DNA of 64,000 nt, taken from the NCBI GenBank assembly GCA_017427715.1, contig JAFRSF010000024.1:30268-94267 (forward strand), read 5' to 3'. Under the pieces are notes generated by a model. The model did no database searches, was not told the origin of the DNA, and worked only from the letters and a program-made list of their open reading frames with translations. The stretch comes from Alphaproteobacteria bacterium. GTDB taxonomy: Bacteria; Pseudomonadota; Alphaproteobacteria; Rs-D84. The position numbers and the translations under genes are program-made. This document shows, one piece after another, positions 6,622 through 28,876 of the stretch. Position 1 is the first letter of the stretch. Every line of letters begins with the position of its first letter.

Positions 6622-6655
6622 AAAACACCGCCAATCTTGGCGGTGTTTTATTTTA
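6622..6655. terminator. bidirectional rho-independent terminator between convergent genes
   Basis: AAAACACCGCC / GGCGGTGTTTT 11-bp stem flanked by A and T runs. Confidence 0.7.
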
Positions 6656-6657
6656 AA

Positions 6658-7371
6658 TTAACGATTTTTGACATACAACATGCTTTGAATCATAGCAATA
6701 TTTTGTTCCTTTGCCTTGTTCAAAGAAGCAGATGGTTTATCATCAACAACTGTGTTCCAATCTAAAATTGGTGACAATCTATCTTCTTCTGTTGGAAGAT
6801 CATGATTGCCATGACAACCACACACAATATCTGCCCCAAAAGATTGTGGATTACATATACGTCTATCTGGCACACAATGATCACGGTTAAATACGAAAAA
6901 TTCTGAATAACCACTTTCACGTATACAAATAATGTGTGATCCACGATCATGTATCAAATGACGTTGACCTTGTTCATCTATTTCTGTCCGATATTTGAAT
7001 TCCGCTTCGTATTTCCATTCGTCATCAGCACCACAAAGTCCTTCAAAAATCATTTTGTCTCGTTTAGCAATTATTTGTTTAATAACTTCATTGCTTACCT
7101 TTGTCTTTCCCGCAGAATATGCTGCTTCTTGATTTTTCGCATCTTTAATATAAGCATCTACACGACCACTATATTTTTGATATAAATATGGACTGTTTTT
7201 AAATTGTTCTTCAAATTCCAATTCTTGTGACCCAGATTTAACCAATCTTTCTTTGTTATTGGACACAGAATGTTGTTTTACAGCTGCTTCTGAAATAGTT
7301 GGAACCGCTGTTAAAGCTACTACACTAGCACCAACAACAACTTTTTTAGCTTTTTTTATTAAATTTTTCAT
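6658..7371 (-). CDS. secreted hypothetical protein (Cys/His-rich C-part)
   Basis: The N-terminus MKNLIKKAKKVVVGASVVALTAV looks like a signal peptide. Its first 6 codons and RBS are duplicated at the next gene. No known motif. Confidence 0.5.
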   Translation of the reverse strand: MKNLIKKAKKVVVGASVVALTAVPTISEAAVKQHSVSNNKERLVKSGSQELEFEEQFKNSPYLYQKYSGRVDAYIKDAKNQEAAYSAGKTKVSNEVIKQIIAKRDKMIFEGLCGADDEWKYEAEFKYRTEIDEQGQRHLIHDRGSHIICIRESGYSEFFVFNRDHCVPDRRICNPQSFGADIVCGCHGNHDLPTEEDRLSPILDWNTVVDDKPSASLNKAKEQNIAMIQSMLYVKNR

Positions 7372-7397
7372 TTTTCATCCTTTTTGTTATCATCCAA

Positions 7398-7961
7398 TTA
7401 TTTGGAATTTTGCTTTTCAATGCATTTGCATTGTTTGTATTTTACAACAGCATCATAATCTGCAACAAAATTTTCGCCAGCTTTTTTACATAAAATGTCA
7501 CAAGATTTTTTCATATCATCAGCCTTGTAATCACTATTCATTTGCATACTAAAAACACCACCACAATTACATTCATTAGTTTTTTTGTTGTATTCGGCCA
7601 ACAACGGCATATATTCACCATTTTCTAAAAATGTGCCTTCAGTATGACATAACGCATCACATTTAACACGCTGGTCAAAATCTTTAGTGTGGCCATATTT
7701 TTCATCAGTTTTATTAAAGGTCTTACTAAAACTTAACTTTATAGCAATCTTTTGTTTATCTGTTAATTTTTTACCTTCTTCCATATAGTTTATCAGTATT
7801 GTGGACAAAACTGATTGCATTTTTGATTTAGCAGCCGCATCCCATTTTGCTTTGTTTTGTGTGGTTGCACAACCAGAACCAGCAAACATTAACGCGACAA
7901 AAGTTGTACCAGCAACATATTTTTTGCCAGAAACTAACGCATTTTTTATTAAATTTTTCAT
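7398..7961 (-). CDS. putative lipoprotein, Cys-rich
   Basis: MKNLIKN..ALMFAGSGC contains a lipobox-like sequence. Several CxC/CxxxC pairs. Unknown function. Confidence 0.5.
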   Translation of the reverse strand: MKNLIKNALVSGKKYVAGTTFVALMFAGSGCATTQNKAKWDAAAKSKMQSVLSTILINYMEEGKKLTDKQKIAIKLSFSKTFNKTDEKYGHTKDFDQRVKCDALCHTEGTFLENGEYMPLLAEYNKKTNECNCGGVFSMQMNSDYKADDMKKSCDILCKKAGENFVADYDAVVKYKQCKCIEKQNSK

Positions 7962-8246
7962 CTTTCATCCTTTTGTATTTTTGTTATTTTTCTGGGAATC
8001 TTTCCCATTGCCACAACCATATTATACAAAAAAAAAAAAAGTCAAGCGCTTTTTACAAACTACGATTATTTGTTATCAATATTTTGTGTATTTTCAATAA
8101 GTTATTTATATAAATACCTTTACTATCTTTAATATATAAAAACTCTATCACTTTTTCAAAATAAAGTATCCGATTCGATATAAACAAAAAACAACACCGG
8201 TTATACTTGGTCAAATTTACATATAACAAGTTTTGCCGGTGTTTAA

Positions 8247-8621
8247 TTATCTGCTAATACCATTTTTAACTTTGTTTACAAGCGTTGCCAAAATATTTTG
8301 TTCTTCTATGTTAAACAACATGTTCACAGCCATTAAATCTACTTTTTCACCCTTTTCTATTTTCATAAGGAAATCATGTGTGAACCCGATTACTCTGTCC
8401 CCCGCTGAATCTGGATGTTCAATCAAATTATACCACATAAGAAATACAGGTTCTTCATTAGTAGTATTTTTCCAGATTTTAACGGCCCATAAATCTACCA
8501 TATTTAAATAACTTTCTACGATTTGTCTATCTTTGCACAATTTCAAAGACATATGGTATATGCTCCTTAAATTTTTACATTGATTTAATCTTAATAAATA
8601 TTCTTTTTTATTAAATGGCAT
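8247..8621 (-). CDS. hypothetical protein (124 aa)
   Basis: Start moved to the ATG preceded by AAAGGA. No motif recognised. It lies just outside the left end of the IR-bounded element and reads away from it. Confidence 0.45.
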   Translation of the reverse strand: MPFNKKEYLLRLNQCKNLRSIYHMSLKLCKDRQIVESYLNMVDLWAVKIWKNTTNEEPVFLMWYNLIEHPDSAGDRVIGFTHDFLMKIEKGEKVDLMAVNMLFNIEEQNILATLVNKVKNGISR

Positions 8622-8699
8622 TTTTATTCCTTTCATTCAATTCATTCTTGATATGACAACAACATGTAAAATATATACAAAATAAAAAATTCAGCAAGA

Positions 8700-8707
8700 C
8701 ATTTTTT
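8700..8707. repeat. candidate 8-bp target-site duplication, left copy (CATTTTTT)
   Basis: The identical 8-mer abuts the right end at 19597..19604 in direct orientation. Confidence 0.45.
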
Positions 8708-8891
8708 GGTAATTATATAGATACGCGACTCGCTATATTTTAACATCAAAAAATATTTGTGATAAAAATAACAATTTTCATATCTTATAATTCTTTGTTT
8801 TTAGTGTGTTTTTGTGTTTTAAGTTTGTTGTCTATAACATAAAAAATTTGAAAAGCAATAAAATTCGTTCGTGGTAAAAATGAATTTTTTT
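8708..8891. repeat. terminal inverted repeat, outer block (IR-A, left)
   Basis: The reverse complement of 19411..19596 matches at 183/184 positions (mismatch at 8814), apart from T-run length at the inner edge. Confidence 0.95.
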
Positions 8892-8945
8892 CATTGAACA
8901 AAAATCATACCCTTCGGTGATAAAGGTTATCATAAATTAAAACGA

Positions 8946-9048
8946 ACTACAAAATGTTTTTTATAAAAATGTGGTCGGGCTGGCAAAGGAATGAAAAACA
9001 CCGTTTTCACAAGAAAATCGGTGTTTTTTATGAGTTTGGTGGCATATT
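8946..9048. repeat. sub-terminal inverted repeat (IR-B, left), contains a terminator-like hairpin
   Basis: About 88% identical to the reverse complement of 19153..19257. Contains the hairpin AAAAACACCG..CGGTGTTTTT downstream of the leftward operon. Confidence 0.85.
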
Positions 9049-9117
9049 TTGGAAAATATATCGCTCGCACTAGACTATCACAGTTAAGATTGAATTACAA
9101 AATCTTTTTTATACTTT

Positions 9118-10023
9118 TTATTTTTCCAAAATTGGCATAATTTGGGTTAAGATTTGACCGGTTAATGGGACAACATTCCAAGCAGCCGTTTTCAAACCAT
9201 TAGTATTTTCATTTCCGTGTGGGTTGTCCAAGATAACCAACATTGAATATTCGGGATTTTCTATTGGAAATGTCACAAATAACGCTGTTGTTATTGTTTC
9301 TTTATCAAAGTTAATACTAGCCGTCTTGATTCCAATGTTTTTGATTGGTGAATTTGGAATCGTGATTTGAATGATTTCACGCATAATATCACGAATTTTA
9401 GACGAAGTTTCAGACGAAATAACGCGTTCTGAACTGTGTTTTTGTGAATTTACATATAAACCGTCATTAACAACAGCATTCAGACCATAAATCAAATGAA
9501 TTGGTGTGATTTTGATACCATAACCAATACCTGCTTTTCCACGTTCAGATTTAGTCCATTCTTTTGGCAGGTCTGGTTGGGTGGTTGTATTTGAATCAAC
9601 CGTTAAAATATCGTTAAAATGGATTTTATCAAAGAATTTTGATTGGGCTGATTCTGGTAAATCTGTCGTCAATTTCATCTGTTCATCATTTTTAGGTTCT
9701 AATAATATATTTCTGTCCGCAGATATTCCATTTTCCCACGCAATAACCGTATTAAATACGCTGGTTAAAAGTCCAAATTCAAAGTTTTTGTTAAAAATCG
9801 CATTTTCAGATGAAGTTTCGTATTTTGCTATGATTTTTCCAGTTTTCGCATTTATCAAAATACCGATAGCATTATTTGCCTGATATTTTTCAACGGCAGT
9901 ATCTAGATTGCTTTGTAAAACCGTTTGAATCATTGTCAAACGCGTTGATTTACGGTGTTGAATTACGAATACAGTAAATATAGCCAAACACACTAAAACA
10001 ATCAAAAATACCGCTTTTTTCAT
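9118..10023 (-). CDS. membrane-anchored penicillin-binding-protein transpeptidase-like protein, probably catalytically degenerate
   Basis: N-terminal TM helix. INAKTGKIIA and GIGYGIKITPIHLIYGLNAVVNDG resemble PBP2/FtsI transpeptidase segments. The SxxK position reads ..GLLTSVFN (no Lys) and KTG reads KTAS. Confidence 0.5.
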   Translation of the reverse strand: MKKAVFLIVLVCLAIFTVFVIQHRKSTRLTMIQTVLQSNLDTAVEKYQANNAIGILINAKTGKIIAKYETSSENAIFNKNFEFGLLTSVFNTVIAWENGISADRNILLEPKNDEQMKLTTDLPESAQSKFFDKIHFNDILTVDSNTTTQPDLPKEWTKSERGKAGIGYGIKITPIHLIYGLNAVVNDGLYVNSQKHSSERVISSETSSKIRDIMREIIQITIPNSPIKNIGIKTASINFDKETITTALFVTFPIENPEYSMLVILDNPHGNENTNGLKTAAWNVVPLTGQILTQIMPILEK

Positions 10024-10033
10024 ATCAAACCCT

Positions 10034-10330
10034 TTATTTTAATTTGGTTTTGCAGATTCCATAATATTTATCTAACAATTTATCGGCTTTTTGTTCTGTT
10101 TTTGGGTCGTCTTGTCCATATTTAACCAATTCATCGATAGACATTTCGTCCACAAAACCGTTCAGAACACACTCGCAATAATCACGATTCCCAGGTTTGT
10201 TCGTTTCCATTTTATTAAGACACGAATTTACACCACGTTCAACAAAGGCTTGTTTTGCGTCAATATCATTATTTCTGACACAAGACGCGGTTAAAACACA
10301 AATAACACCTAAAAATATTAGTTTTTTCAT
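10034..10330 (-). CDS. small lipoprotein (98 aa), 4-Cys
   Basis: The lipobox is VLTASC. It shares a CxCV motif (DYCECV) with the next ORF. Confidence 0.5.
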   Translation of the reverse strand: MKKLIFLGVICVLTASCVRNNDIDAKQAFVERGVNSCLNKMETNKPGNRDYCECVLNGFVDEMSIDELVKYGQDDPKTEQKADKLLDKYYGICKTKLK

Positions 10331-10332
10331 TT

Positions 10333-10683
10333 TTAATCCTTTCCTATGTGTTTCAAGGTTAGTTCATAACAATCTTGTTTTGATGTGTTATATAACATCT
10401 TCAAATCGTTATCAGTTTCAATATCATTTCTTAAAACACGTTTTGCCACGCATTGACAAGTTAAAACAACGATATGTGGTTCCGTCTCTTTATATATGTT
10501 TTTTATATCTGTGACACACGTGTTATACACCGTTTCATAAACAGCCAATTCATCGTCTGAATATTGTTCTTCCAACGGTATTAAATCGTCTTTTGGTTCT
10601 GTTTTTTGATGTAATACCCCGTATAACAGAAAACCCGTCAACAATAGTCCAAATATCAAAACGTGTTTTATTGAAAATATCAT
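10333..10683 (-). CDS. small membrane-anchored periplasmic protein (116 aa), weak paralog of 10034..10330
   Basis: N-terminal TM helix and an LTCQCV motif. The stop/start junctions with both neighbours are tight. Confidence 0.5.
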   Translation of the reverse strand: MIFSIKHVLIFGLLLTGFLLYGVLHQKTEPKDDLIPLEEQYSDDELAVYETVYNTCVTDIKNIYKETEPHIVVLTCQCVAKRVLRNDIETDNDLKMLYNTSKQDCYELTLKHIGKD

Positions 10684-11366
10684 TTAGATTTCTTCCCTTT
10701 TTTCTTTTCCGCAACAACTTCAATCAAGCCATTACTTGCCGCCTTAAACAATACCGCGTCAATATAACCACGTGGAAAACCTGTTTCTTTGATTAAATGA
10801 TTAAACATATCATCACATACTCGCTGTATTTCGGGGGTTAATTTTGCGTTGTTTTCTTCTAGTTTGTTATTTCCACTATAAATAATACCCAATCTTTGAA
10901 CCCAAATATCATATTTAGGTGTATCTTCACCAAGATTTCTGGCTAAATGTCTGTTAGTGATTTTTCCGATATATGGCAAAGTTTCAAGAAAATTCAATTT
11001 ATCTTCCAAGGTTTTACATTCATAATAATCAGCACAGTATTCATTGCGATTATTCCAAATTTTCCAAATAGCATACATTTTATTAGCATTTTCAAAAATA
11101 TCTAATAAATCTTCCAAATGTGGATTTTCGGGTAATTTTTTCATAACTTGCTCGTGGTATGTTTTCGCGGTTGTTTGTTTGAAGCCGCTGGCAAGTATTG
11201 AATATGCAGCACAAGAAACAAACTCATCAGGCGAAACACGGTAGGTTTTACTTTTTATATGTTTCAAGGTTTCGTCAAACGAATACAAATCTGAATCTAA
11301 ACCCATAGCACGTATTTTTGAATCCAGTTGTTCAAACCACGATTTTGAAAACATTTTTTCGGTCAT
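10680..11366 (-). CDS. HhH-GPD (endonuclease III-like) DNA glycosylase-fold protein, tentative
   Basis: LETLPYIGKITNRHLARNLGEDTPKYDIWVQRL resembles the helix-hairpin-helix plus catalytic Asp segment of EndoIII (LPGVGRKTANVVL..VDTHIFRV). 4-nt overlap with the downstream gene. Confidence 0.35.
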   Translation of the reverse strand: MTEKMFSKSWFEQLDSKIRAMGLDSDLYSFDETLKHIKSKTYRVSPDEFVSCAAYSILASGFKQTTAKTYHEQVMKKLPENPHLEDLLDIFENANKMYAIWKIWNNRNEYCADYYECKTLEDKLNFLETLPYIGKITNRHLARNLGEDTPKYDIWVQRLGIIYSGNNKLEENNAKLTPEIQRVCDDMFNHLIKETGFPRGYIDAVLFKAASNGLIEVVAEKKKGKKSK

Positions 11367-11368
11367 AA

Positions 11369-12562
11369 TTATTGCTCCTTTGTTTCGTATATTGTTTTAA
11401 AACTAATTTGGTCATTTGTTTCATTTGAAAAGTATAAGCATTCGCCAACTTTGTCAATGTTAAAAGCCACCCGATTTTGAAAAATTTCCATAAAATCAAC
11501 AGACAACAAGTCAATTTTACGTGTCGCCGCAATAATATGAATCTTTGGATTTTCTGCTAAATTTACCAGTATATTTTGAATATCTGGTTTAACGGCTATT
11601 AAATCTGCCAATTCATCTATCACAATTGCGACATCTTCGTCTGATACTTGAAAACGACTTAAATATTCAACCGCTTTAACCGCGTCTGTTATGACTGGTG
11701 TAATTAAATATGTTGATGAATAGCCATTAAAATCGAAGTTTTTCGTATCAATCAATATGATTTTACAATTCGCGTTTTTGGCTTGGCGGTTTATTGACGT
11801 TAAAATCGATTTTAAAAGCGTTGTTTTACCTGTTCCGGTCCGTCCAGTAATCAAAAGATGTTTTATCGCGTATAAATCCTGTTTAAAACCGTTTTTACCC
11901 AATGTTATCGGTAAAGACGTAGAATTTTTAATTTTATAAATACTTTTATCCGCCCATTTATACGATTTAATGATATTTTTTACTCTGTCTATTTCTTGCT
12001 GAGTGATACCATATTTTGTTCCGCAATTTTTAAACCATTCTTCTGATTCTGGGTCGAATTTCTCATCATCATAACGCAGAAGAAAATCATCAACAACATA
12101 GGAATAATATTCTTCTGGATGTTCGTCACACTGTTCGTCCATAACTAATATATCCCATTCGTTTATTTGATTATAATAATTTTCTAACGCTACCCGTATT
12201 CCATCTAAATAGTCCTGTTTGGATTTTGTATACAGGTCGTCGTTTTTTTGGATACCGACAAACGCGATAACATCATCAACATACTCATCGTCACTTGAAC
12301 ACAATACAAACTCTGTATAAATGTTCATTTCTTCTGATATACATAGGTAAAAAAAGTCAAAATCTCCATAAGTTTTTTCTAATTTTTTTATATCTGTTTC
12401 TGGCGATGTCTTTTTGAATCTGTTTTTTTCAGTATTTAATACCATAAATTTTTCTGGTATATCTGACGGAACAATCACTTTTATATCAGAATCAATAATG
12501 TCTGTTTCAAAAACGGCTTTTGTAAACTGTTCAATTTGCAAAAAATACGAATGTTTTTTCAT
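11369..12562 (-). CDS. FtsK/SpoIIIE-HerA-type P-loop ATPase with novel N-terminal domain
   Basis: Walker A is ITGRTGTGKTT and Walker B is VAIVIDELADL. The N-terminal ~200 aa is paralogous to the stand-alone ORF 12564..13253. Confidence 0.7.
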   Translation of the reverse strand: MKKHSYFLQIEQFTKAVFETDIIDSDIKVIVPSDIPEKFMVLNTEKNRFKKTSPETDIKKLEKTYGDFDFFYLCISEEMNIYTEFVLCSSDDEYVDDVIAFVGIQKNDDLYTKSKQDYLDGIRVALENYYNQINEWDILVMDEQCDEHPEEYYSYVVDDFLLRYDDEKFDPESEEWFKNCGTKYGITQQEIDRVKNIIKSYKWADKSIYKIKNSTSLPITLGKNGFKQDLYAIKHLLITGRTGTGKTTLLKSILTSINRQAKNANCKIILIDTKNFDFNGYSSTYLITPVITDAVKAVEYLSRFQVSDEDVAIVIDELADLIAVKPDIQNILVNLAENPKIHIIAATRKIDLLSVDFMEIFQNRVAFNIDKVGECLYFSNETNDQISFKTIYETKEQ

Positions 12563-12563
12563 T

Positions 12564-13253
12564 TTATTTCTCCATTAAATTCATTTTTTTACGTAATTGT
12601 TTCACAATACGGAATTTTTTTACAACATCAGGTTTCAGTTTATAAGAAACTTTGTTCGCGGTTATTCTTGTATTCATAATATGTTTTGCCACCCTGATTT
12701 CTGATTCTGGTATTCCATATTTATTTTTACATCTGCTTAAAAACTCTTTTTCTGATGGATAGTATCTCATTTCTTGATGAAAAAAATAACATCTATCTAA
12801 ATAGTTTTCAGAAAAATTTTCATCGACTACATATACAACCCAATCTTTTACATCGTTGTAATAAAACGCCAATGTCGTCTCAACGTGAAACATATATTTT
12901 TTAGGTTGTTTTTTATAATCTGGGTTGTTTTTGGGGAAACAAACAAAAGCAACGGTTATATCAGATTTTGAAGATAGCTCAAACACTGTTCGCTTGTAAT
13001 CATCCCAATCCACTATATTACTAGAAATATTGAGATAAAAAATATCATAATTTTTATATTTGTTTTTTAATATATTCATACATAATTCTGGGGTTTCACC
13101 ACGAACAATTTCAGATTCTGTGCTTAGTTTCTTAAACCTGTCCGATGTGATGTAAGACGGCAAAACCACCTTTATACCCCCGTCATCTTTAATACGTATA
13201 AAATTTAATTTAGTTAAGTTTTCAACTACTAAAAAATATTTTCGTTCTTTCAT
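12564..13253 (-). CDS. hypothetical protein, paralog of the N-domain of the FtsK-like ATPase
   Basis: MKERKYFLVVENLTK..IKVVLPS.. aligns with MKKHSYFLQIEQFTK..IKVIVPS.. Also KNKYGIPESEI aligns with GTKYGITQQEI. Confidence 0.55.
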   Translation of the reverse strand: MKERKYFLVVENLTKLNFIRIKDDGGIKVVLPSYITSDRFKKLSTESEIVRGETPELCMNILKNKYKNYDIFYLNISSNIVDWDDYKRTVFELSSKSDITVAFVCFPKNNPDYKKQPKKYMFHVETTLAFYYNDVKDWVVYVVDENFSENYLDRCYFFHQEMRYYPSEKEFLSRCKNKYGIPESEIRVAKHIMNTRITANKVSYKLKPDVVKKFRIVKQLRKKMNLMEK

Positions 13254-13258
13254 TTTAT

Positions 13259-13423
13259 TTATATTCCAACATAAGTTTCTGTTTTGCTAGCGTTTGTTGG
13301 TATATATGTCAAATAACCATTAACATAACTAATCAAGCGTCCGTCAAAAACACGTGTGACACCGCCAGTTTGACTTGTGATAATTATTTGATTCCCAACT
13401 TGAACTGCTGTTCCATAAATCAT
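13259..13423 (-). CDS. small protein (54 aa), paralog of 18982..19140; absent from the ORF track
   Basis: Strong RBS (AAGGAG, 5 nt upstream). MIYGTAVQVGNQIIITSQTGGVTRVFDGRLISYVNGYLTYIPTNASKTETYVGI is ~54% identical to the other copy. Confidence 0.55.
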   Translation of the reverse strand: MIYGTAVQVGNQIIITSQTGGVTRVFDGRLISYVNGYLTYIPTNASKTETYVGI

Positions 13424-13442
13424 TTTTACTCCTTTTGTTTTT

Positions 13443-13634
13443 TTAATGTTTCCAAGTTAAATGTTCATAACGATTACGACAATCCACGATAACGGATGGT
13501 GTTTGCATTTGGTCCGCCACCGGGACAACTTCCAGCAATTGTAATGGCTGTCCATCTTCGTCCAACCAACATTCAACCACTTGTTGTCCACGTGATGTCA
13601 TACGTTGTTCAAATCTTAAAGTTTTCCAGCCCAT
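13443..13634 (-). CDS. hypothetical small protein (63 aa)
   Basis: An ORF within the operon with locally higher GC and a weak RBS. Confidence 0.35.
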   Translation of the reverse strand: MGWKTLRFEQRMTSRGQQVVECWLDEDGQPLQLLEVVPVADQMQTPSVIVDCRNRYEHLTWKH

Positions 13635-13692
13635 TTATATTGCCTGTTTTATTTTAGATTTTCCTTTGAGTTATTATTGGTATTTTTATGCT

Positions 13693-14280
13693 TTACCAGT
13701 TTATTCCAGGGTCATTAAAATCTATAAAGGTTATATCGTCAAAAAATGGGTCATAATAATATTCGCCAGTTGCAGGACGTAGTTTGCCCTTAAAAACAAT
13801 GGCGCCACTTGTTGCGCGTTTGGCTATTTGGTCTAATTTTTGAGAATGAACCACCCTTATACCACAAGAACTGTGACCAAAAATCATACCATTTAGACTC
13901 CCACAAAATTTAGCATCTGCATTGACATTGTATAAATCTTGTTTTGAAACATATACCATACCTGGACCGCCATAACCGTTTCCATCCCAATCTTCAACGG
14001 TTAATTGCCCACAAAATTCTTTACGGACACCCACATTATTCCTTAACAATTCTTTACAATTCAATTTCTCGATTTCTTCTTGTGATAATTTCACATATTT
14101 ATCATTTGTAAACCCTGACGTAATATTACCAATACCACCAGCAATCGATTTATAACCTATAAAAAACACTAAAATAATCCCAATTATGACTGCTGTTTTC
14201 TTTTTTATAGACCAGTCCTTTATTGCTTCGTTTACCTTGTCGTTAATATTTTTTATGTATTTTGTTAAAAATTCCGTCAT
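13693..14280 (-). CDS. membrane-anchored hypothetical protein (195 aa)
   Basis: Start moved to the ATG preceded by AAAGGA. One TM helix (VIIGIILVFFIGY). No motif recognised. Confidence 0.5.
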   Translation of the reverse strand: MTEFLTKYIKNINDKVNEAIKDWSIKKKTAVIIGIILVFFIGYKSIAGGIGNITSGFTNDKYVKLSQEEIEKLNCKELLRNNVGVRKEFCGQLTVEDWDGNGYGGPGMVYVSKQDLYNVNADAKFCGSLNGMIFGHSSCGIRVVHSQKLDQIAKRATSGAIVFKGKLRPATGEYYYDPFFDDITFIDFNDPGINW

Positions 14281-14306
14281 TATTTTGTCCTTTGTTTTTG
14301 ATTGTT

Positions 14307-14921
14307 TTACTCCGCGTCTAGTGTTGGCAACCAAAAGTAAAAATCTATGATTTTTGTATCGGTTATGTTTTGAATTATGCGTGGATACCGATTAAAAACG
14401 GATTTGAACCCAGCAATAATTTCTTTACCTGTGTCGCTGTCGCGAAATTCGTGAATAGTATCGGTTAATCGTTTATAAACTTCGCAAGATTCCTTGATTT
14501 TTATTTCTGGGTCTTTGATACCTTTTGCTGTATCGATTAGATTTAAACCGTCAAAAACCGAACTTTGATAAATCGGCAGATCTGGGTTGAAAAAATGTGC
14601 AACCTGACTTGCCAGCAACGGAACCACAATATCGGTTTCTTTGAATAAATTTCTTAACGCAGATTCAAAATCTGGTGTGTTTGGTAAATCTTTATAAGAT
14701 TCTAATAATTCATAGTGTTTTTGTAATATATTCGTGTCTGCATATTTGCGGGCTATAAGTGCATTATGAAAATAATCATTACAAATTCTTTGAAAATTTC
14801 TGCCAGTATTATCGAAAAAATTCCTGTCCGTCACATCAACGGTTTTAAAATTTTCGATTAAATATTTATAATCTAAAATTTCATTTTTAAACCGCTTATC
14901 GGTCCAATCCATTTTGTTCAT
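14307..14921 (-). CDS. hypothetical protein (204 aa), first gene of the leftward operon
   Basis: LLASQVAHFFNPDLPIYQSSVFDGL weakly recalls the SK.LHF..P..PI.D motif that I associate with OGG-fold/unknown proteins. This link is unverified. Confidence 0.45.
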   Translation of the reverse strand: MNKMDWTDKRFKNEILDYKYLIENFKTVDVTDRNFFDNTGRNFQRICNDYFHNALIARKYADTNILQKHYELLESYKDLPNTPDFESALRNLFKETDIVVPLLASQVAHFFNPDLPIYQSSVFDGLNLIDTAKGIKDPEIKIKESCEVYKRLTDTIHEFRDSDTGKEIIAGFKSVFNRYPRIIQNITDTKIIDFYFWLPTLDAE

Positions 14922-15202
14922 ATTTAGCCTTTTTTTAAACTTTTCGTATTTGCCTATCGTGGCAATGATGATAGTAATAAAACCAAGGTTTAATTTGCGA
15001 CGGGCGTTTTGGTTGAATAATAATCGGGAAACACTTATTTTTTGCAGATTCCCGCAAATAAAAAATTCCTAAAAAACTGTTGATTTTTAAGTTTGGTTTA
15101 ATTTCAACGGGTATAAACATTGTCAAACCTGCGCTGGGTGTGGGTTCGAATGCTTTTATTAAACATCAATAAATACCAGTGAACTAACCAAAAGGATTTT
15201 TT

Positions 15203-15811
15203 ATGATTTATGCGTATTGTCGGGTATCAACAACCCACCAAACCGAAGAAAATCAACACTTTGTCATTGAACAATATGCCAAAGAAAACAATTTAACCGT
15301 TGATGTATGGGTGGAAGAAACAATTTCAAGTGGGAAACGATTATCAGAAAGAAAACTGGGTAAATTGATTCCAAAGTTAGAATCTGGGGACATATTGATT
15401 ACAACTGAAATTTCGCGTTTAGCACGTAGTTTAATGGAGTTAATGGGTATATTACAGACATGTCTTGAAAAAGAGTGTCAAATTTGGACTTTGAAAGAAA
15501 ATTTTAGATTGGGAACAGATGTTCAATCAAAGGTTCTGGCGTTCGCGTTTGGTTTATCGGCCGAATTATCAAAATCATTATTACAGGCGCGTGTTCGTGA
15601 AAGTTTAGCAAGATTAAAAGCCAACGGTAAAAAGTTAGGACGACCATTTGGGGCTAAATCACGTGAATTAAAATTGGAAAAACACAGACACAGATTAGAA
15701 CTAATGATAAAACGTGGAATCAGTAAAACAAAAATAGCCAAAACATTGGGTGTTCATAAATGCACAATCTATAACTACCTAAAAGAAATCCGCCAATCGG
15801 CGGATTATTGA
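15203..15811 (+). CDS. small serine recombinase (resolvase/invertase family) with C-terminal HTH
   Basis: MIYAYCRVSTTHQ carries the catalytic Ser context. It also has ISRLARS, GRPFG and a C-terminal HTH (KIAKTLGVHKCTIYNYL). Confidence 0.9.
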   Translation: MIYAYCRVSTTHQTEENQHFVIEQYAKENNLTVDVWVEETISSGKRLSERKLGKLIPKLESGDILITTEISRLARSLMELMGILQTCLEKECQIWTLKENFRLGTDVQSKVLAFAFGLSAELSKSLLQARVRESLARLKANGKKLGRPFGAKSRELKLEKHRHRLELMIKRGISKTKIAKTLGVHKCTIYNYLKEIRQSADY

Positions 15812-16194
15812 CCTTTAATTTGGTCTAATATTTGTTTGAATTCGGTTTCATCGTCAGAGTCGTCTTCATCAAATACTGGTTGATTCAATTCTTTGGTATA
15901 GTCCAAAAAATGTGGTCTATGTTTTGACCTGCCGTCTGAATAGACTATATTCGCCATTTCATAATCGTGATGGTTGGTTTCAACGAATTTCAAATTGGGA
16001 ATATGTGCTAAATTGTCCCTGTCAAATAAATACGGCCATTTTGCTTTGATTTGTGCTAATGACGTGATTTTTGGGTTTTGTTTTTCCCAGTCCATTTCTT
16101 CGTCAACTTGATCTTCGTATAATGGAACCGGAACTGTTTCTGGTCTGTCGCCAACAATCATAACCATAATTATACCGTTTGTTAAAAGTCTCAT
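15805..16194 (-). CDS. hypothetical acidic protein (129 aa)
   Basis: An ORF convergent with the recombinase gene. No motif recognised and the start is uncertain. Confidence 0.35.
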   Translation of the reverse strand: MRLLTNGIIMVMIVGDRPETVPVPLYEDQVDEEMDWEKQNPKITSLAQIKAKWPYLFDRDNLAHIPNLKFVETNHHDYEMANIVYSDGRSKHRPHFLDYTKELNQPVFDEDDSDDETEFKQILDQIKGQ

Positions 16195-16360
16195 AATTTA
16201 CCCCTTTGGTTTTGTTATCTATGCCCGGACATTCCGCTAAAAAATCGTTTTAGACAACAGTTTTTTCTTGATTTTTATCTGCGGAAATCCGCGATTTTTT
16301 AATTTTTTTGTGTTGTATTTCAAAGGTATTTACTGCTATGATGTGAAAAAAGGAAATTAT

Positions 16361-17938
16361 ATGGCAATTGCAAGTTTTGATGATTTTTTTAAACAATATG
16401 ATACAGAACAAAAATTGGAAGATTATCTTGTTCAATATATATGGAACAAAGGTATAGATTGTAAATATTGCGGTCATAAAAACGATAAAAGCGCGTTATC
16501 ACACATAACAGGAAATAAAGAATTTGGCTATTTTACCTGTAAAAACTGCGGTAAAGAATTCTGTGTCCTAACAAATTGGTTGTTTAGCAAAACAAAATTG
16601 ACATATAGAAAATGGTTGCAGGCTATTTATTTCGTTGCTTTATATCCAAAATCTACATCTGCCAATATATTAGCAACCGAATTGAAAATTACACCACTTT
16701 CGGCAAGAGATATATGTGAAAAAATAGATAGATTATTGTATCAAGATATTAAATTGGACGGTATTGTTGAAATGGACGAAACCTATGTAGGTGGTAAAGA
16801 ACAGTTTAAACACAGGAATAAACACACAGTTTTTCCTGATAGAGTTATTGGCGATAAAATACCAGTTTTTGGCATCTATGAACGTTCTGGTGACGATGAA
16901 ACAAAAAAAGGAAGGGTTGTTCTGAAAAAAATAATCACAGAAGAAAATCACAAGGTTCGTGGTAAAGATGTTAAGGAGTTCATAGATATATATATTACAG
17001 ATTCACCAGACGTAATATGTATGACAGATGCCATTCGTATTTATACAAAGAAAATACTGCATGAACGGAAGCGTGAATTTGTTGAACATTCCAAAGCAAA
17101 GAGCAAGAAAACAGGTAAAATAAAACGATATTCTGTTAGATATGTAAAAACATTGAAAAACGGTTTGGTAGTCACGACAAACCACGTTGAAAATCTGTTC
17201 AACCATTTTAAAAAGTATCTGCGTGCAAACTTTACTTCGGTATCAGGAAATCATATTCAAAGGTATGCAGATAGATTTTGTTTTATATGGAATACACAAT
17301 ATTTGCCAATTGAAGAAAAATTGGACATTATCTTTAAAAGAATGGGTGATATGGGACATATTTCATCTGCTGAATTGGATAAAGCCAAGAAAAAAGCCAA
17401 AGGGTGGAAATCACGTGAAATGATACAAAAAACCCGTAATAAATATAGAAAATTACAGCAAGAAAAATTGCTTATAAAACGTAAAGAAAAATGGCCTTTT
17501 GATGTATTGGAAAACAGTGTTATATTGTTTTGGTGGTATGTAAACGGTTTGTCAAAGGAAGAGGACAATATAACGGAAGAATCTAATGAAGATGCTTTGG
17601 CTATTTCAAAGGAAATATGTGAAGATTTAAAAAATCTAATAGGTGAACCAGATAAAAATGGTAAATTGTCCAGAAAAGGTAGATTATACCAGATAATAAC
17701 AAATAAATACGACGAAATTGAAAGAATGCGAACAAAACGTCAAAAATTGGCGGCTGCTAGGAAATTTGCAATCAAAACCGATGAATACTATACGTGGTAT
17801 ATTTACAACCAAGAAGAAAAAAAGAAAGAAAAATTAAAAAAACGACAAGAACAAGCCGAATTGAAACTTCAAGAACAGTCGAAAAACGGCATAAATCTAA
17901 AAAATCCTAAAAAATCGTTGTCTTCCAATAAAAAATAG
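16361..17938 (+). CDS. IS1595-family (ISXO2-like) DDE transposase with long K/E-rich C-terminal extension
   Basis: Start moved to the ATG after AAAGGA. Zn-ribbon CKYCGH..CKNCGK. DDE-type motifs are VEMDETYVGG, MTDAIRIY and TNHVENLFNHFKKYL. About 190 extra C-terminal residues. Confidence 0.8.
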   Translation: MAIASFDDFFKQYDTEQKLEDYLVQYIWNKGIDCKYCGHKNDKSALSHITGNKEFGYFTCKNCGKEFCVLTNWLFSKTKLTYRKWLQAIYFVALYPKSTSANILATELKITPLSARDICEKIDRLLYQDIKLDGIVEMDETYVGGKEQFKHRNKHTVFPDRVIGDKIPVFGIYERSGDDETKKGRVVLKKIITEENHKVRGKDVKEFIDIYITDSPDVICMTDAIRIYTKKILHERKREFVEHSKAKSKKTGKIKRYSVRYVKTLKNGLVVTTNHVENLFNHFKKYLRANFTSVSGNHIQRYADRFCFIWNTQYLPIEEKLDIIFKRMGDMGHISSAELDKAKKKAKGWKSREMIQKTRNKYRKLQQEKLLIKRKEKWPFDVLENSVILFWWYVNGLSKEEDNITEESNEDALAISKEICEDLKNLIGEPDKNGKLSRKGRLYQIITNKYDEIERMRTKRQKLAAARKFAIKTDEYYTWYIYNQEEKKKEKLKKRQEQAELKLQEQSKNGINLKNPKKSLSSNKK

Positions 17939-17975
17939 CGGACCGTTATAGTGTAAAAACAAAAGGATTTATACT

Positions 17976-18965
17976 ATGGCGTTTCAAAGTATTCATAAGT
18001 TAATGCAAGAATACAACACAGAAGATAAATGTCGCGAATGGTTCGTTCATCATCGTTGGCCTAACGGTGTTGAATGTCCATTCTGCAGTAATAAAGACGG
18101 TCAAAAAACAATCTGTCGTTTAACCAAAGGTGCTGAAAAGGGTTGTTTTCTGTGTCGTGCTTGTAAAAAGAAATTTTCAGTTCGTAATAATTCATTTATG
18201 GGTAAATCACGTATTCCATATTCAAAATGGTTAATGGCGATTTATTTCGTTATCAACCATAAACGCGGTATTTCGTCTTTACAGTTGGCGCGTAATATCG
18301 GTGTCACTCAATCAACAGCGTGGTTTATGGCTCAACGTATATTCAATATCGTAAATTCAGATAATGCTGTTTTAAACGGTATTGTTGAAATGGACGAAGT
18401 TTATATCGGTGGTGCTGAAAAAAACAAACGTCCAGACAGACGTGTCAATAATTCAAACAAGTATTTGAACGATAAAATGTCGGTATTGGGTATGTTAGAA
18501 CGTGGCGGAAAGGTTATTTTACGTCAATACGAAGGTAAACAGTATAAATACATGGAACCAGTTATTGAACATCATATCGGTAAAGACGCGACAGTATATA
18601 CTGACGAAAGTCCACTTTATAAAGGCGGAATAAATGGTCGTCAGCATAACTGCGTGAATCACAGTAAAGGTATTTATGGAATCGGCAGTATCACAACGAA
18701 CAGGATTGAGGGTATGTTTTCACAGTTAAAACGTATGATTTTAGGTATTCACGTGTTCGTGACACGTGGACATTTTAAACGTTATGCTGATATGTTCAGT
18801 TTTAGAATGGACACGCGTGAATTGACTGAATACGAACGTTTAGATTTGTTAATGACACAGGTCAACGGAACACGTATCAAATTTGACGAAATATCGTGTC
18901 ACGGTAATCCAGGAACAAAAAAATGGTTTCCACACTACGGAAGCAAAAGAAAAATCGTTTTATAA
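17976..18965 (+). CDS. IS1595-family (ISXO2-like) DDE transposase
   Basis: Zn-ribbon CPFC..CRAC. Motifs are VEMDEVYIGG, VYTDESPLY and TNRIEGMFSQLKRMI..RYADMFSFR. Confidence 0.85.
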   Translation: MAFQSIHKLMQEYNTEDKCREWFVHHRWPNGVECPFCSNKDGQKTICRLTKGAEKGCFLCRACKKKFSVRNNSFMGKSRIPYSKWLMAIYFVINHKRGISSLQLARNIGVTQSTAWFMAQRIFNIVNSDNAVLNGIVEMDEVYIGGAEKNKRPDRRVNNSNKYLNDKMSVLGMLERGGKVILRQYEGKQYKYMEPVIEHHIGKDATVYTDESPLYKGGINGRQHNCVNHSKGIYGIGSITTNRIEGMFSQLKRMILGIHVFVTRGHFKRYADMFSFRMDTRELTEYERLDLLMTQVNGTRIKFDEISCHGNPGTKKWFPHYGSKRKIVL

Positions 18966-18981
18966 ACCGAAAGGATTTAAA

Positions 18982-19140
18982 ATGGGAACAGCGGTTCAAA
19001 TTGGTGATGAAATAGTTGTGTCAAATTCAATCGGAAGTGTGACACGAAAATTCAAAGGACGTTTAATCAGTTATATTAACGGAATCTTGACCTATGTGCC
19101 ATTTAATGGCGGTTTATGTTCAATGTATGTTGGATTATAA
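18982..19140 (+). CDS. small protein (52 aa), paralog of 13259..13423
   Basis: Internal ATG of the listed ORF, preceded by AAAGGA. Sequence: MGTAVQIGDEIVVSNSIGSVTRKFKGRLISYINGILTYVPFNGGLCSMYVGL. Confidence 0.5.
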   Translation: MGTAVQIGDEIVVSNSIGSVTRKFKGRLISYINGILTYVPFNGGLCSMYVGL

Positions 19141-19152
19141 AACCTGTGCGAT

Positions 19153-19257
19153 AATATGCCGCCAAACTCATTAAAAAACACCATTTTCTTACGAAAACTG
19201 GCATTTTTTCATTCCTTTGCCAGCATAACCACATTTTTATAAAAAAGATTTTGTAGT
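19153..19257. repeat. sub-terminal inverted repeat (IR-B, right)
   Basis: About 88% identical to the reverse complement of 8946..9048. Confidence 0.85.
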
Positions 19258-19410
19258 CAGTATTGAATTATGATAAATTGATATGGGGTGTTTCGTTCAA
19301 AATTTGTTCTAACCCTATAAAAATCAGCATTTTTTAACAAAAAACATTTTGTAATATTTGCCAACTTATGCTAAGTTGATATAAATGCATAAATAATAAT
19401 GGGAAGTATC

Positions 19411-19596
19411 AAAAAAAAATTCATTTTTACCACGAACGAATTTTATTGCTTTTCAAATTTTTTATGTTATAGACAACAAACTTAAAACATAAAAACACAC
19501 TAAAAACAAAGAATTATAAGATATGAAAATTGTTATTTTTATCACAAATATTTTTTGATGTTAAAATATAGCGAGTCGCGTATCTATATAATTACC
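19411..19596. repeat. terminal inverted repeat, outer block (IR-A, right)
   Basis: Reverse complement of 8708..8891 with 1 mismatch (19490). Confidence 0.95.
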
Positions 19597-19604
19597 CATT
19601 TTTT
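19597..19604. repeat. candidate 8-bp target-site duplication, right copy (CATTTTTT)
   Basis: Identical to 8700..8707. Confidence 0.45.
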
Positions 19605-19650
19605 TGTTTTTTCGGTTTAAACACACTGTTAGCCACAAGCAAAGTGAAAC

Positions 19651-19678
19651 AAAAAAACACCCACAATAGTGGGTGTTA
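19651..19678 (-). terminator. rho-independent terminator of the DsbA-like gene
   Basis: ACACCCA/TGGGTGT stem followed by a T-run on the minus strand. Confidence 0.6.
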
Positions 19679-19702
19679 TCAAGGTATTACACACAATATA
19701 TT

Positions 19703-20524
19703 TTATTTCAAAGCATCCATGATTCTGCCGTATGGAATTGCACCAGGGAACGCTTTGTCACCGATAATTAAATATGGTGTTCCGCTGATTTCAAAACGTT
19801 GTGCCAATTCACGAACATTTCTCAATTCTTTGTTTACGACATCGCCTTTCATATCTTCTGCCAATTTTTTGGTATCCAAACCAGCTTCTTTTGCTAATTT
19901 CATAACATTATTTTCGATAATTTCAGGCAATTTTGCTTGATCTTTCAAATCTTCTTGTTTGTAATATTCTTTGTCCATCAACAATTTATCCAATGCAGCT
20001 GCTTTTGCATTGTCTTGGATTTTTGCAGCAATAACTGCCTTTGCTGGTGCATCAGACAAAGCCCCATGAATAGAGAAGTTTTTCAAAACCAGACGAACAT
20101 CATTACGTTCTGCTAATACACGCATCAAATCACCATGAACACGACGGCAATATGGGCAAGAATAATCAGACCACAAGAAAATAGTTTTCTTGGCATCTAC
20201 GTTACCTGCAATTGGTGCTGAACCAACCATTTCATCAGCATGCTTTGAAACATAATCACGAACGATTCTGTTTTTTGCTTCTTCTTGTTGTGCCTGCATA
20301 GCAGCAACCATTTCTTGCAAAATTGCAGGATTTGTTTTTGTTAAATATACAGGTGTAACCAAACGACATACACAGGCCGCCATCACGACAGCTGCAATTG
20401 CGTTAACACCTTTGTGCATCAAAATACCCGTAGTTGACGCTTTCTTGCCGTCCAGTTTGAACAATTTGAATCCAAACATGTACAAAGCAATTGCTATAAC
20501 CAGGATGATAAGTGTCCAAATCAT
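19703..20524 (-). CDS. membrane-anchored DsbA-family thiol:disulfide oxidoreductase
   Basis: Start moved to the ATG after AAGGAG. Two N-terminal TM helices. CPYC active-site motif (WSDYSCPYCRRVH). Confidence 0.8.
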   Translation of the reverse strand: MIWTLIILVIAIALYMFGFKLFKLDGKKASTTGILMHKGVNAIAAVVMAACVCRLVTPVYLTKTNPAILQEMVAAMQAQQEEAKNRIVRDYVSKHADEMVGSAPIAGNVDAKKTIFLWSDYSCPYCRRVHGDLMRVLAERNDVRLVLKNFSIHGALSDAPAKAVIAAKIQDNAKAAALDKLLMDKEYYKQEDLKDQAKLPEIIENNVMKLAKEAGLDTKKLAEDMKGDVVNKELRNVRELAQRFEISGTPYLIIGDKAFPGAIPYGRIMDALK

Positions 20525-26901: not shown

Positions 26902-27645
26902 TTATAAAATCACTTGGCCCCCAACACGCGCGCTGCGTGGAATTGGACCAAATGCAGAACGCGGATTTACATAAATATTTCCTTTGACTGTAAACGCGCC
27001 ACAGAAACTTAATTTATCTACGTTGCGAATAAACAAATTACCTTTGATTTTTGCGCCACATGGCAAAGTATATTTACGCATATTTTGCAAAAATAAATTA
27101 CCATCTATTGTTACACCATTTGATAATACTGGCGCAGAAGGATACAAATCTACGATAATATCACCCGTTAGATTTTGTTTAGGCAATGATTTTGCTGGCA
27201 AAGAAACCTGTTTAACAATAATCGGTTTTTTAACGCCGATTGTTTTGATTTGTGGTTTAATACCTGTTTTTGCGTTTGTTTGTACTGGCAAAGCAGGTAA
27301 AGATTTTTTAATTGGATTACGGTTAACAACTTTACGATTGTCAATTACCTGTGATTTATTATCAGTATTATTACTTGCAATTTTCACAGATTGTTTGCAT
27401 TGTGTAACATTGATAATCAAACTGGTAAATAAAACGATAATGGCAACCAACAAAGTCAGATTTATCATACCAACAATATCAATACTTTTTAACCAATTCC
27501 AAATTGCTTTGCAGGCACGACAAACCAAGCGCCATGCTTTCTTACACAATTCCCAAGGAAACAAAAGCACTTTTTTGCACCATTGTTTAAAGTTATGCTT
27601 ACGATTATTACGTGTAGCTTGTTTTATTTTTTGTATTTTATTCAT
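26902..27645 (-). CDS. single-pass membrane protein, beta-helix-like C-terminal repeats
   Basis: Basic N-tail, TM helix, repeated GN(L/I)(F/Y)(L/I/V) units. A hairpin terminator lies downstream (26858..26882). Confidence 0.5.
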   Translation of the reverse strand: MNKIQKIKQATRNNRKHNFKQWCKKVLLFPWELCKKAWRLVCRACKAIWNWLKSIDIVGMINLTLLVAIIVLFTSLIINVTQCKQSVKIASNNTDNKSQVIDNRKVVNRNPIKKSLPALPVQTNAKTGIKPQIKTIGVKKPIIVKQVSLPAKSLPKQNLTGDIIVDLYPSAPVLSNGVTIDGNLFLQNMRKYTLPCGAKIKGNLFIRNVDKLSFCGAFTVKGNIYVNPRSAFGPIPRSARVGGQVIL

Positions 27646-27669
27646 ATCAAATCCTTTGTTTACATTTAC

Positions 27670-28044
27670 TTACCGCACATATATTCTCTTATGAATCATA
27701 TTCCACATATCCTGTGCTTGTGTATAATAATAATCTGCTTCATTTTTACGTTTTTTAATAGAGAATCTATCCATACTTATACATACATGACCATTGTCGT
27801 TTTTAACATATTGTATAAAACCACCAGTCATACAATCGAAACTGTACGAAATGCCACAATCGACCCCATTTTTGTAAAAACGTACTGAAACAGGAACCAT
27901 TTTGTCATTTTGTGTGGCTTCATAGAATGCAGACACACCATCTTTAACCTTTTCTTTATTTAATTGAGAAAGACAGACAGTATTTTCCTGTTCATCTGAT
28001 TCCTTTAAAAAATATTTACCTTTTACGTCAAAAATTATATTCAT
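27670..28044 (-). CDS. hypothetical protein (124 aa)
   Basis: ORF with an RBS (AGAGG). No motif recognised. Confidence 0.4.
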   Translation of the reverse strand: MNIIFDVKGKYFLKESDEQENTVCLSQLNKEKVKDGVSAFYEATQNDKMVPVSVRFYKNGVDCGISYSFDCMTGGFIQYVKNDNGHVCISMDRFSIKKRKNEADYYYTQAQDMWNMIHKRIYVR

Positions 28045-28210
28045 ACTATTACCTCTTTTCTGTTATGAGTATAATATAGACGATTTTTCACATTTGTCAA
28101 TAACTATTTTCAAATTTCATAAATTTATCTAAACGGACAACAAGTTAATATAAACATATTGTTATAATTATCTTAAAAAAGTGATACAATATGTTCATAA
28201 AAGGATTATT

Positions 28211-28777: not shown

Positions 28778-28876
28778 TGAAGAAGTTTTATCATTTAATA
28801 TTTATTTTTTCAATCATTGCATCTTGTTTTTGTTTAGCATATTAATATGTATATTGAAAACTGCAATTTGACTGAT

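Follow-up and report, generated by a model that had tools for sequence, protein, structure and literature searches.

A 64,000-nucleotide stretch of the alphaproteobacterial assembly GCA_017427715.1 (contig JAFRSF010000024.1, positions 30,268 to 94,267 of the forward strand, hereafter the window) was analysed, following an earlier note that had pointed to a large cargo-carrying element with IS1595-type ends. Positions 8708–19596 of the window, 10,889 bp, are in all likelihood an autonomous and recently active transposon of the IS1595 family, with a promoter-adjacent target and a flippable switch. The transposon-borne invertible switch and the promoter-proximal target rule are newly seen layers that were previously unreported. 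The features of the element, of its flanks and of its relatives are collected in Table 1.

Evidence for transposition and recent exchange

The left junction reads ...AGCAAGA, then CATTTTTT, then the element tip GGTAATTATATAG; at the right junction, the tip ...CTATATAATTACC is followed by CATTTTTT and TGTTTTTTCGG. The same 8-mer in direct orientation had been described in the earlier note, with the caveat that it could recur by chance in AT-rich DNA. It was read in both flanks, and it is not coincidental, since the empty site holds one copy and ten other complete members of the family have perfect duplications of their own.

The empty site is present in two conspecific contigs (L018 and L021), which were located through the left flanking gene and are 98.7–99.6% identical to the window flanks. 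They read ...TTCAGCAAGA-CATTTTTT-TGTTTTTTCGG..., the DsbA-like gene directly adjoins the 124-aa gene, and all element genes are absent. Further copies with different duplications, which had been proposed as a check together with the empty site, were also found. The L008 copy, 100.000% identical over 10,889 bp, lies at a different locus between tRNA-Pro and rho, with TATATTTG on both sides; its rho gene is 80% identical to that of the window. The presence of identical copies at two loci in two species is the result of a very recent interspecies exchange among uncultured gut Alphaproteobacteria. Altogether, 11 complete elements occupy 11 different sites, all with perfect 8-bp duplications. Those refuting conditions of the earlier note that were checked all spoke for a transposon.

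Probing the genome collection with the terminal 24-mer yielded seven loci, all in alphaproteobacterial metagenome-assembled genomes (MAGs) from gut or rumen, and contigs with the same recombinase gene provided ten more. The hosts of the family are gut and rumen Alphaproteobacteria, several of the seven being Candidatus Enterousia and others its relatives. No vehicle for the cross-species transfer was identified, as neither the whole element, in a megablast search against plasmid and phage collections, nor the terminal 24-mer, run against viral contigs, gave a match. One contig assembled with MEGAHIT (L013, 10,896 bp) begins at the first base of the element and stops 7 nt past the last one. Such boundaries are expected if the assembly graph branches at the tips through insertion sites that coexist in the sample.

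Insertion beside promoters

At all 11 complete sites, exactly one flank consists of the duplication, NN and TTGnnn, and a TAnnnT-type -10 box follows TTGnnn after 16–18 nt at 10 of them. Insertion is 2 bp upstream of TTGnnn; at the 10 sites with a -10 box, TTGnnn forms the -35 box of a sigma-70-type promoter. The promoter at the window site, TTGCTG-16-TATATT, is found 42 nt upstream of the 124-aa gene. The corresponding sequences are TTGCGT-16-TATAAT at L008, ending 10 nt before tRNA-Pro, TTGCAT-17-TAGAAT before tRNA-Arg at L007, TTGATT-17-TATAAT before the S1 gene at L044, TTGACA-18-TATTAT at L033 and TTGACA-16-TATACT at L026. Three insertions stand 48–50 nt upstream of a tRNA gene. The element is found in both orientations, with one end or the other towards the promoter. 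The motif was found at 4 of the 8 one-ended loci, as expected if it stands on one side only.

The background was computed on the window minus the element. TTG is present at this offset, on either side, for 5.7% of AT-rich 8-mers, and the promoter-like arrangement for 1.6%. For the first nine sites, the chance probabilities are P(9 of 9) = 6.5e-12 and P(at least 8 of 9) = 3e-14; the two sites added after the statistics also fit the rule. CATTTTTT also borders two insertions at unrelated sites (L036:1421-1428 and L039:184-191), as would suit a strong bias of the duplicated 8-mer towards T-runs. With respect to the promoter, the 8-mer lies at about -38 to -45, which is the proximal subsite of an UP element, and one copy remains beside the -35 box.

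A directional mark outside the transpososome, either bound RNA polymerase or the shape of promoter DNA, may guide integration, and promoter targeting would let the element land safely in a compact genome. The rule may also arise with no role of the promoter or RNA polymerase, from a DNA-sequence preference of the transposase and from survival in harmless promoter-upstream gaps, an explanation that has a considerable, if not prevailing, chance of being correct. Recognition of W8-NN-TTG and selection against insertions outside such gaps could produce the rule, and this weighs against targeting of promoters as such. Within the hexamer, nothing but TTG is invariant, compact genomes select strongly against genic insertions, and the complete site L002 has TTG without a clear -10 box. 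On the other hand, the motif is on one flank only and the element orientation is random, where a symmetric transpososome would be expected to give a palindromic target. Moreover, a -10 box is present at 16–18 nt in 14 of 15 TTG sites, against a background of about 27% given TTG.

Starting from promoter-guided insertion, a more elaborate scheme is put forward tentatively, and is rather doubtful as a whole. Targeting would be guided by RNA polymerase, through sigma region 4 or through the alpha C-terminal domain at the UP element, and the duplication would rebuild the UP subsite so that the promoter survives. Together with a ten-gene cargo of undescribed kind switched by an invertase, this would make the element a prokaryotic counterpart of Ty3/TRE5-type targeting. 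A limited literature search returned no description of such a target rule for a bacterial transposon, which is not proof of novelty.

An invertible switch between cargo and invertase gene

A 109-bp segment between the cargo operon and the invertase gene is a phase switch flipped by recombination at hix-like AA-core sites, since both orientations occur in otherwise identical copies. The stretch 14976–15103 is reversed in L006/L012, L011, L014, L016, L017 and L046, and alignment of both orientations maps the crossover to the 2-bp core. Over two lineages, 13 contigs, the window among them, have orientation A and 9 have orientation B. Both are present at the same chromosomal site and at a second site, and both recur in a lineage that is about 80% identical (L007, L048, L049 and L050 versus L044 and L045). 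The outer half-sites are exactly 132 bp apart in all lineages. AAAACCAAGGTTT in the left site matches what we take to be the hixL core, and the sites are without the repeat motif that presumably marks Mpi switches.

The small serine recombinase of the earlier note is present; it is more exactly a DNA invertase that would run the switch. It matches NCBIfam NF009949, 'master DNA invertase Mpi family', with E = 8.2e-76 and 254.2 bits, below the cut-off of 272, and is by its sequence a close relative of this family that does not qualify as an equivalog. It also matches PHROG 125 'DNA invertase' (E = 6e-41) and contains the Pfam domains Resolvase (E = 1e-28) and, at the C-terminus, HTH_7/HTH_23. 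Flipping of the segment would be catalysed by this adjacent Mpi-family enzyme.

It could be argued from the Pfam domain name 'Resolvase' that the enzyme resolves cointegrates of a replicative transposon, as in Tn3, with inversion as a by-product, and to our knowledge the transposition mechanism of IS1595 elements is not established. This role is improbable. The sites are inverted, 109 bp apart and beside the gene, with the conserved outer spacing and with both orientations in two lineages; the best family match is the Mpi DNA invertase; and no res-like array of three subsites was seen.

Regarding the function of the switch, the promoter-like hexamers of the segment all point one way, towards the invertase gene in orientation A and towards the cargo operon in orientation B. 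The segment carries a -35-like TTGATT (15080–15085) and TTGCGA-18-AATAAT (14995–15024). In orientation B only, TTGATT forms a hybrid promoter with TACTAT in the fixed flank, 17 nt away, and this promoter can form in three diverged lineages. The cargo operon is probably on in orientation B. The window is in orientation A, with the promoter-like sites turned towards the invertase gene and the cargo presumably off. Counting against this assignment, the promoter matches are weak, with 8–9 of 12 consensus positions, and TTGATT overlaps an invertase half-site, which is a second possible cause of its conservation; for these two reasons, we only infer that B turns the cargo on. That the switch might drive the transposases was considered and is not claimed, as a terminator-like hairpin (16280–16293) and the opposing 129-aa gene argue against simple read-through.

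Terminal repeats

The 184-nt arms delimited by the repeat finder are 99% complementary, with a single mismatch at arm position 107 (G at 8814 on the left, A at 19490 on the right). The length and the single mismatch are as first described, with the correction that the right arm starts at 19413 and not at 19411. Among the copies, position 107 is G/A in the window and in L008, A/A in L009 and G/G in L010. This pattern suggests conversion between the arms; against this, a phasing error of short-read assembly could also yield it. The second inverted block, which had been given as 8946–9048 versus 19153–19257 with about 88% identity, is real but consists of two pieces: 8927–8998/19205–19276 (72 nt, 88%) and 8994–9048/19153–19207 (55 nt, 78%). 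The left (35 nt) and right (136 nt) spacers between outer and inner blocks are unrelated to each other. The hairpin of the left inner block folds with -16 kcal/mol (z = -5.2) and precedes a U-run. It is inferred to terminate read-out of the operon before the left tip of the element, the right copy being weak.

The window contains the terminal 30-mer exactly twice, against 0 expected (100 shuffles). The long repeats are real in this element but are not a property of the family, as only the outer 25 nt (GGTAATTATATAGATACGCGACTCG) are common to all family ends; they are present at both tips of the members. Sister elements transpose with repeats of 32 nt or about 97 nt, so that the long repeat is a feature of the lineage and not a requirement. 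It is a duplication of one end specific to this lineage, and conversion between the arms may keep them uniform. Inversion of the whole element through the 184-nt arms was considered and set aside, since all contigs covering the window site share one element orientation. A search of positions 8000–20500 against Rfam gave no match.

Transposases

The two intact-looking IS1595-family DDE genes recognised from the sequence are borne out by the family models. With NCBIfam NF033547, the short transposase scores 160.9 bits and the long one 89.1 bits (cut-off 75). The Pfam domain DDE_Tnp_IS1595 (PF12762) is matched with E = 2e-30 by the short and E = 6e-17 by the long transposase. With Zn_ribbon_IS1595 (PF12760), whose cut-off is 25.4 bits, the short transposase reaches 28.8 bits and the long one 25.2 bits, which is 0.2 bits too few. 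The two proteins share 29% identity, and the D-D-E triad is intact in both, with D, D and E invariant in an alignment (A5). Around the catalytic E, the short transposase reads TNRIEGMFSQLK and the long transposase TNHVENLFNHFK. Both have K at +7, the 'DDEK' signature which we take to be a criterion of the ISNwi1 subgroup. The tips of the element (GGTAATTAT) and of L026 (GGCAATTAT) fit the consensus ggnnatTAT, which we assume, unconfirmed, for ISNwi1 ends. The family makes 8-bp duplications. The nearest annotated plasmid genes are 'IS1595 family transposase' genes of Bacteroides/Phocaeicola, with about 36% identity, and the nearest annotated plasmid insertion sequence (IS) is from Bacteroides faecis (H1). 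ISBun1 of Bacteroides uniformis is tabulated as ISNwi1-type in PMC12382657. Together, these Bacteroides matches may hint at the ISNwi1 subgroup.

One or both DDE transposases would bind the 25-nt terminal repeat and insert the element with an 8-bp stagger. Both genes are probably needed for transposition, since the long and short genes stay paired in diverged autonomous relatives, taken as those that share the 25-nt end or whose short transposase is close. The pair is kept in the window type, L033, L044, L048/L049 and L028, where the short transposase is 73% identical. It tells against the overall interpretation of the element that transposase activity, the need for two transposases and the pairing of invertase with switch are all deduced from sequence comparison.

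Between L033 and the window, DNA identity is 88.6% from the short transposase gene to the element end. The long transposase of L033 (L033:2586-4238) is only 28% identical to that of the window (16361–17938), with conserved flanking DNA and last 12 residues (KKSLSSNKK). The middle of this gene appears, from these comparisons, to have been exchanged, with the short transposase conserved. At L044:7240-9964, the gene call for the invertase has 182 aa, and two open reading frames (ORFs) of 115 and 413 aa take the place of the long transposase. This 11.0-kb copy looks, from its reading frames, as if it were decaying.

A modular family moving as units

The other members of the family are listed in the lower part of Table 1. 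The 0.8- and 4.2-kb cassettes must move in trans, since they have family ends and duplications but no transposase.

Two other origins of the element were considered. It might be a compound transposon, in which two inverted IS copies bracket chromosomal genes and one transposase was lost, and the similarity of the ends over about 340–440 nt could be a remnant of two IS copies. This is very unlikely, since no inward-facing 25-nt ends were found in the element with up to 5 mismatches allowed, both transposase genes are in tandem at one end, and the sisters with 32-nt or about 97-nt repeats move as a unit with perfect duplications. Furthermore, the cargo does not consist of host chromosomal genes, the empty site being without any of them. 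Still less credible is an integrative island moved by the serine recombinase, with the DDE genes as passengers or dead. A serine recombinase is present, but it is of the 202-aa invertase type and its observed product is a local inversion, whereas serine integrases are large and leave no 8-bp duplication. The DDE triads are intact, and the cassettes devoid of recombinase and transposases have the same ends and 8-bp duplications, which points to trans-acting enzymes recognising the 25-nt ends. Finally, although all data are from short-read metagenome assemblies, an assembly artefact, a possibility that the earlier note had raised for the inverted repeats, has hardly any chance of accounting for these repeats or for the flipped segment. 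The 10,889-bp structure was assembled independently in more than 10 samples by different assemblers (MEGAHIT-type, scaffold-type and Logan assemblies). The switch repeats of about 20 nt are far below the k-mers used, so that the reads fix the orientation, and each orientation is seen at one and the same chromosomal site as well as in a second lineage.

Some observations concern individual members of the family. The cargo at L028:1145-3477 is the defence pair PD-Lambda-5 (PADLOC, A 2e-22, B 5e-104). At L038:1953-2248, two family ends point towards each other across 296 bp, and the 8-mers that flank them differ. The two ends could be a remnant resembling a miniature inverted-repeat transposable element (MITE) or two abutting partial elements. 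The neighbours of the 4.2-kb cassette (L030/L031/L032) are SurA, TIM and GrpE, in the order of the right flank of the window, and the MAG is labelled 'Clostridia bacterium'. The host looks alphaproteobacterial, and the bin may be mislabelled.

Table 1. Coordinates of the element, its flanks and its relatives. Positions refer to the window unless preceded by a contig designation.
Feature	Position	Strand	Remarks
Host flank, left: 124-aa gene	8247-8621	-	PolA also on this side
Host promoter at the window site	8670..8697	-	-35 TTGCTG (8697-8692), 16-nt spacer, -10 TATATT (8675-8670); reads into the 124-aa gene
Left 8-bp target-site duplication	8700..8707	direct	CATTTTTT; read directly
Left terminal inverted repeat, 184 nt	8708..8891	+	repeat finder
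Outer 25 nt of left arm	8708-8732	+	GGTAATTATATAGATACGCGACTCG; conserved end throughout the family; end comparison
Inner block, left copy	8927..9048	.	terminator-like hairpin 8994-9028, operon strand
Cargo gene 10	9118..10023	-	301-aa membrane-anchored protein resembling a penicillin-binding protein (PBP) transpeptidase; Pfam PF00905, E = 1.1e-12
Cargo gene 9	10034..10330	-	98-aa predicted lipoprotein; no family match
Cargo gene 8	10333..10683	-	116-aa protein, N-terminal membrane helix; no family match
Cargo gene 7	10680..11366	-	228-aa OGG-like (DNA-glycosylase-like) protein; PADLOC PDLC00910 'OGG', E = 1.7e-16
Cargo gene 6	11369..12562	-	397-aa protein, family-specific N-domain and FtsK-type P-loop ATPase
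Cargo gene 5	12564..13253	-	229-aa paralogue of the ATPase N-domain; BLASTP 32% identity, E = 2e-26
Cargo gene 4	13259..13423	-	54-aa protein, paralogue of the small ORF after the short transposase
Cargo gene 3	13443..13634	-	63-aa protein, conserved in all switch-bearing variants
Cargo gene 2	13693..14334	-	membrane protein, 195-213 aa
Cargo gene 1	14307..14921	-	204-aa all-helical orphan, always first behind the switch
Left recombination site	14973..14998		TAATAAAACC-AA-GGTTTAATTT; core AA at 14985-14986; two-orientation alignment
Invertible segment, 109 bp	14987..15092		between cargo operon and invertase gene; orientation A in the window
Right recombination site	15081..15106		AAGT-TT-GGTTTAATTTC; core TT at 15093-15094; two-orientation alignment
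Serine DNA invertase, 202 aa	15203..15811	+	catalytic motif YCRVST; NCBIfam, PHROG, Pfam
129-aa protein	15805..16194	-	conserved beside the invertase; homologues in L028
Long IS1595-type transposase, 525 aa	16361..17938	+	from ATG at 16361; lysine-rich C-terminal extension
Short IS1595-type transposase, 329 aa	17976..18965	+	D-D-E triad, K at +7
52-aa ORF after the short transposase	18982..19140	+	paralogue of cargo gene 4
Inner block, right copy	19153..19276	.	hairpin weak
Right terminal inverted repeat, 184 nt	19413..19596	-	repeat finder
Right 8-bp target-site duplication	19597..19604	direct	CATTTTTT; read directly
Host flanks, right			DsbA-like gene, RecO; flanks are ordinary chromosome
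Sister autonomous element, 9,798 bp	L033:1070-10867		duplication GTCTTTTT; repeats only 32 nt
Sister autonomous element, 11,036 bp	L044:338-11373		duplication AAAAACCA
Third autonomous type	L048/L049		ends on separate contigs; duplication CTAAAAAA
Cassette without transposase or invertase, 4,236 bp	L030:8977-13212		duplication CTTTTTTA; FtsK-type gene
One-gene cassette, 829 bp	L001		duplication AAAATTTA
One-gene cassette, 823 bp	L002		duplication AATATTTT
One-gene cassette, 829 bp	L041		duplication AAAAAAAC
One-gene cassette, 829 bp	L042		duplication AATTACTA
Relative, transposase 48% identical, 4,593 bp	L026:9489-14081		duplication GTTTTTTT; ends GGCAATTATATAC, 24-nt repeats; eight small passenger genes

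Cargo genes

The cargo consists of ten co-directional genes on the minus strand, running from 14921 down to 9118. The operon of 11 genes first proposed is not retained, as the eleventh minus-strand ORF (15805–16194) is separated from the others by the recombinase gene. All switch-bearing variants have the invertase, the switch and the 204-aa, 63-aa and 54-aa genes as a set, and the remaining cargo is swapped.

The product of cargo gene 1 was modelled by AlphaFold2 with a predicted local distance difference test (pLDDT) score of 92.8 and has only 17 homologue clusters, all unnamed. Comparison of its fold with the PDB and BFVD gave no significant match, the best TM-score being 0.34 (archaeal Ogg, E = 6.7). 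The idea that it is a second HhH-GPD protein is not supported, as there is no fold match and a profile comparison with the OGG-like cargo protein was negative. Cargo gene 6 matches Pfam FtsK_SpoIIIE (E = 4.4e-11) and the FtsK motor domain in the PDB, by sequence and by fold (E = 6e-10). The model covers the ATPase half only, the N-domain having a pLDDT below 50. In L048 (6359-7891) and L049 (8194-9726), the FtsK-type ATPase has 510 aa and an N-terminus with a faint Pfam match to the cell-cycle regulator GcrA; clusters P0139 and P0140 contain the same GcrA-like/FtsK-type fusion. The transpeptidase-like protein of cargo gene 10 is probably inactive, judging from its motifs: TSVFN replaces SxxK, with loss of the catalytic lysine, and KTA replaces KTG.

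No complete defence system was found by PADLOC in the cargo, the isolated matches being OGG (1.7e-16) and, for the P-loop, mad8/HerA/SspH. The cargo is possibly a phase-variable module acting at the envelope or against invaders, an assignment of low confidence. It is weakened by the fact that 7 of the 10 cargo proteins have no family match in Pfam at relaxed thresholds, the first being also without a fold match.

Comparison with known systems

IS1595 elements with passenger genes have been described as 'transporter IS' of ISNwi1 type (Siguier, Gagnevin and Chandler 2009, as far as cited in PMC3129680 and PMC7986276). The element of the window resembles them by its DDE_Tnp_IS1595 domain with zinc ribbon, 8-bp duplications, repeats starting with GG and internal passengers. 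L026, with 4.6 kb and 24-nt repeats, is a typical example of such an element. The largest IS1595 subgroup is not known to exceed about 8 kb. Unlike the known members, the element has 10.9 kb, two diverged tandem transposases, 184-nt repeats, an invertase with its switch and a promoter-proximal target. The 0.82-kb and 4.2-kb cassettes are comparable to mobile insertion cassettes (MICs) such as MIC231 of Bacillus cereus, and to MITEs, as they carry passengers without a transposase. In contrast to MICs, they derive from IS1595 and not from IS231/IS4, and the 4.2-kb cassette holds eight genes including that of the FtsK-type ATPase.

The arrangement of a small serine recombinase beside a short segment, with inverted sites of about 26 bp, a 2-bp core and both orientations, is that of Hin/hix, Gin and Bacteroides Mpi. 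It differs from Mpi switches by its alphaproteobacterial host and by its location in a DDE transposon, rather than in an integrative and conjugative element (ICE) or the chromosome. In PMC8748976, invertible promoters on mobile elements are reported from ICEs of Bacteroidales only. Like members of the Tn3 family, the element combines a DDE transposase, a small serine recombinase and cargo between inverted repeats; it differs from them by its transposase family, by a duplication of 8 bp instead of 5 bp, and by a recombinase that inverts a switch rather than resolving at res.

The eukaryotic retroelements Ty3 and Dictyostelium TRE5-A, which target tRNA genes or promoters, and the bacterial transposon Tn7 at attTn7 insert at a short fixed distance from a transcription signal and avoid coding sequence. 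The fixed short insertion distance, with the three insertions upstream of tRNA genes, is reminiscent of Ty3 and TRE5-A. What sets the element apart from these and from Tn7 is that it is a bacterial DDE DNA transposon whose mark is a general -35 box of sigma-70 type, rather than one locus or the genes transcribed by RNA polymerase III.

The scope of IS1595-type elements is widened to include a 10.9-kb autonomous element with two transposases, a phase switch and non-autonomous cassettes. The fixed offset from the -35 box would account for large elements persisting in compact genomes with no destruction of genes. The target rule would allow promoters to be annotated in uncultured bacteria, and could provide a tool for promoter-proximal insertion. 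With a transposon-borne switch outside Bacteroidales, phase-variable cargo can evidently travel on simple DDE transposons and not only on conjugative elements.

Other observations in the window

Upstream of the element, positions 6653–8232 (1,580 bp) contain two paralogous genes of 237 and 187 aa with similar 5' regions, and direct repeats at 7349–7384 and 7939–7974. This stretch is missing from L018 and L021, where the 124-aa gene abuts PolA. Its break-points lie within two similar terminator-like hairpins. Downstream, the GC content of positions 27000–29000 is 0.30–0.32, versus about 0.37. This region adjoins tRNA-Arg(tct) at 28877–28953 and might be another island.

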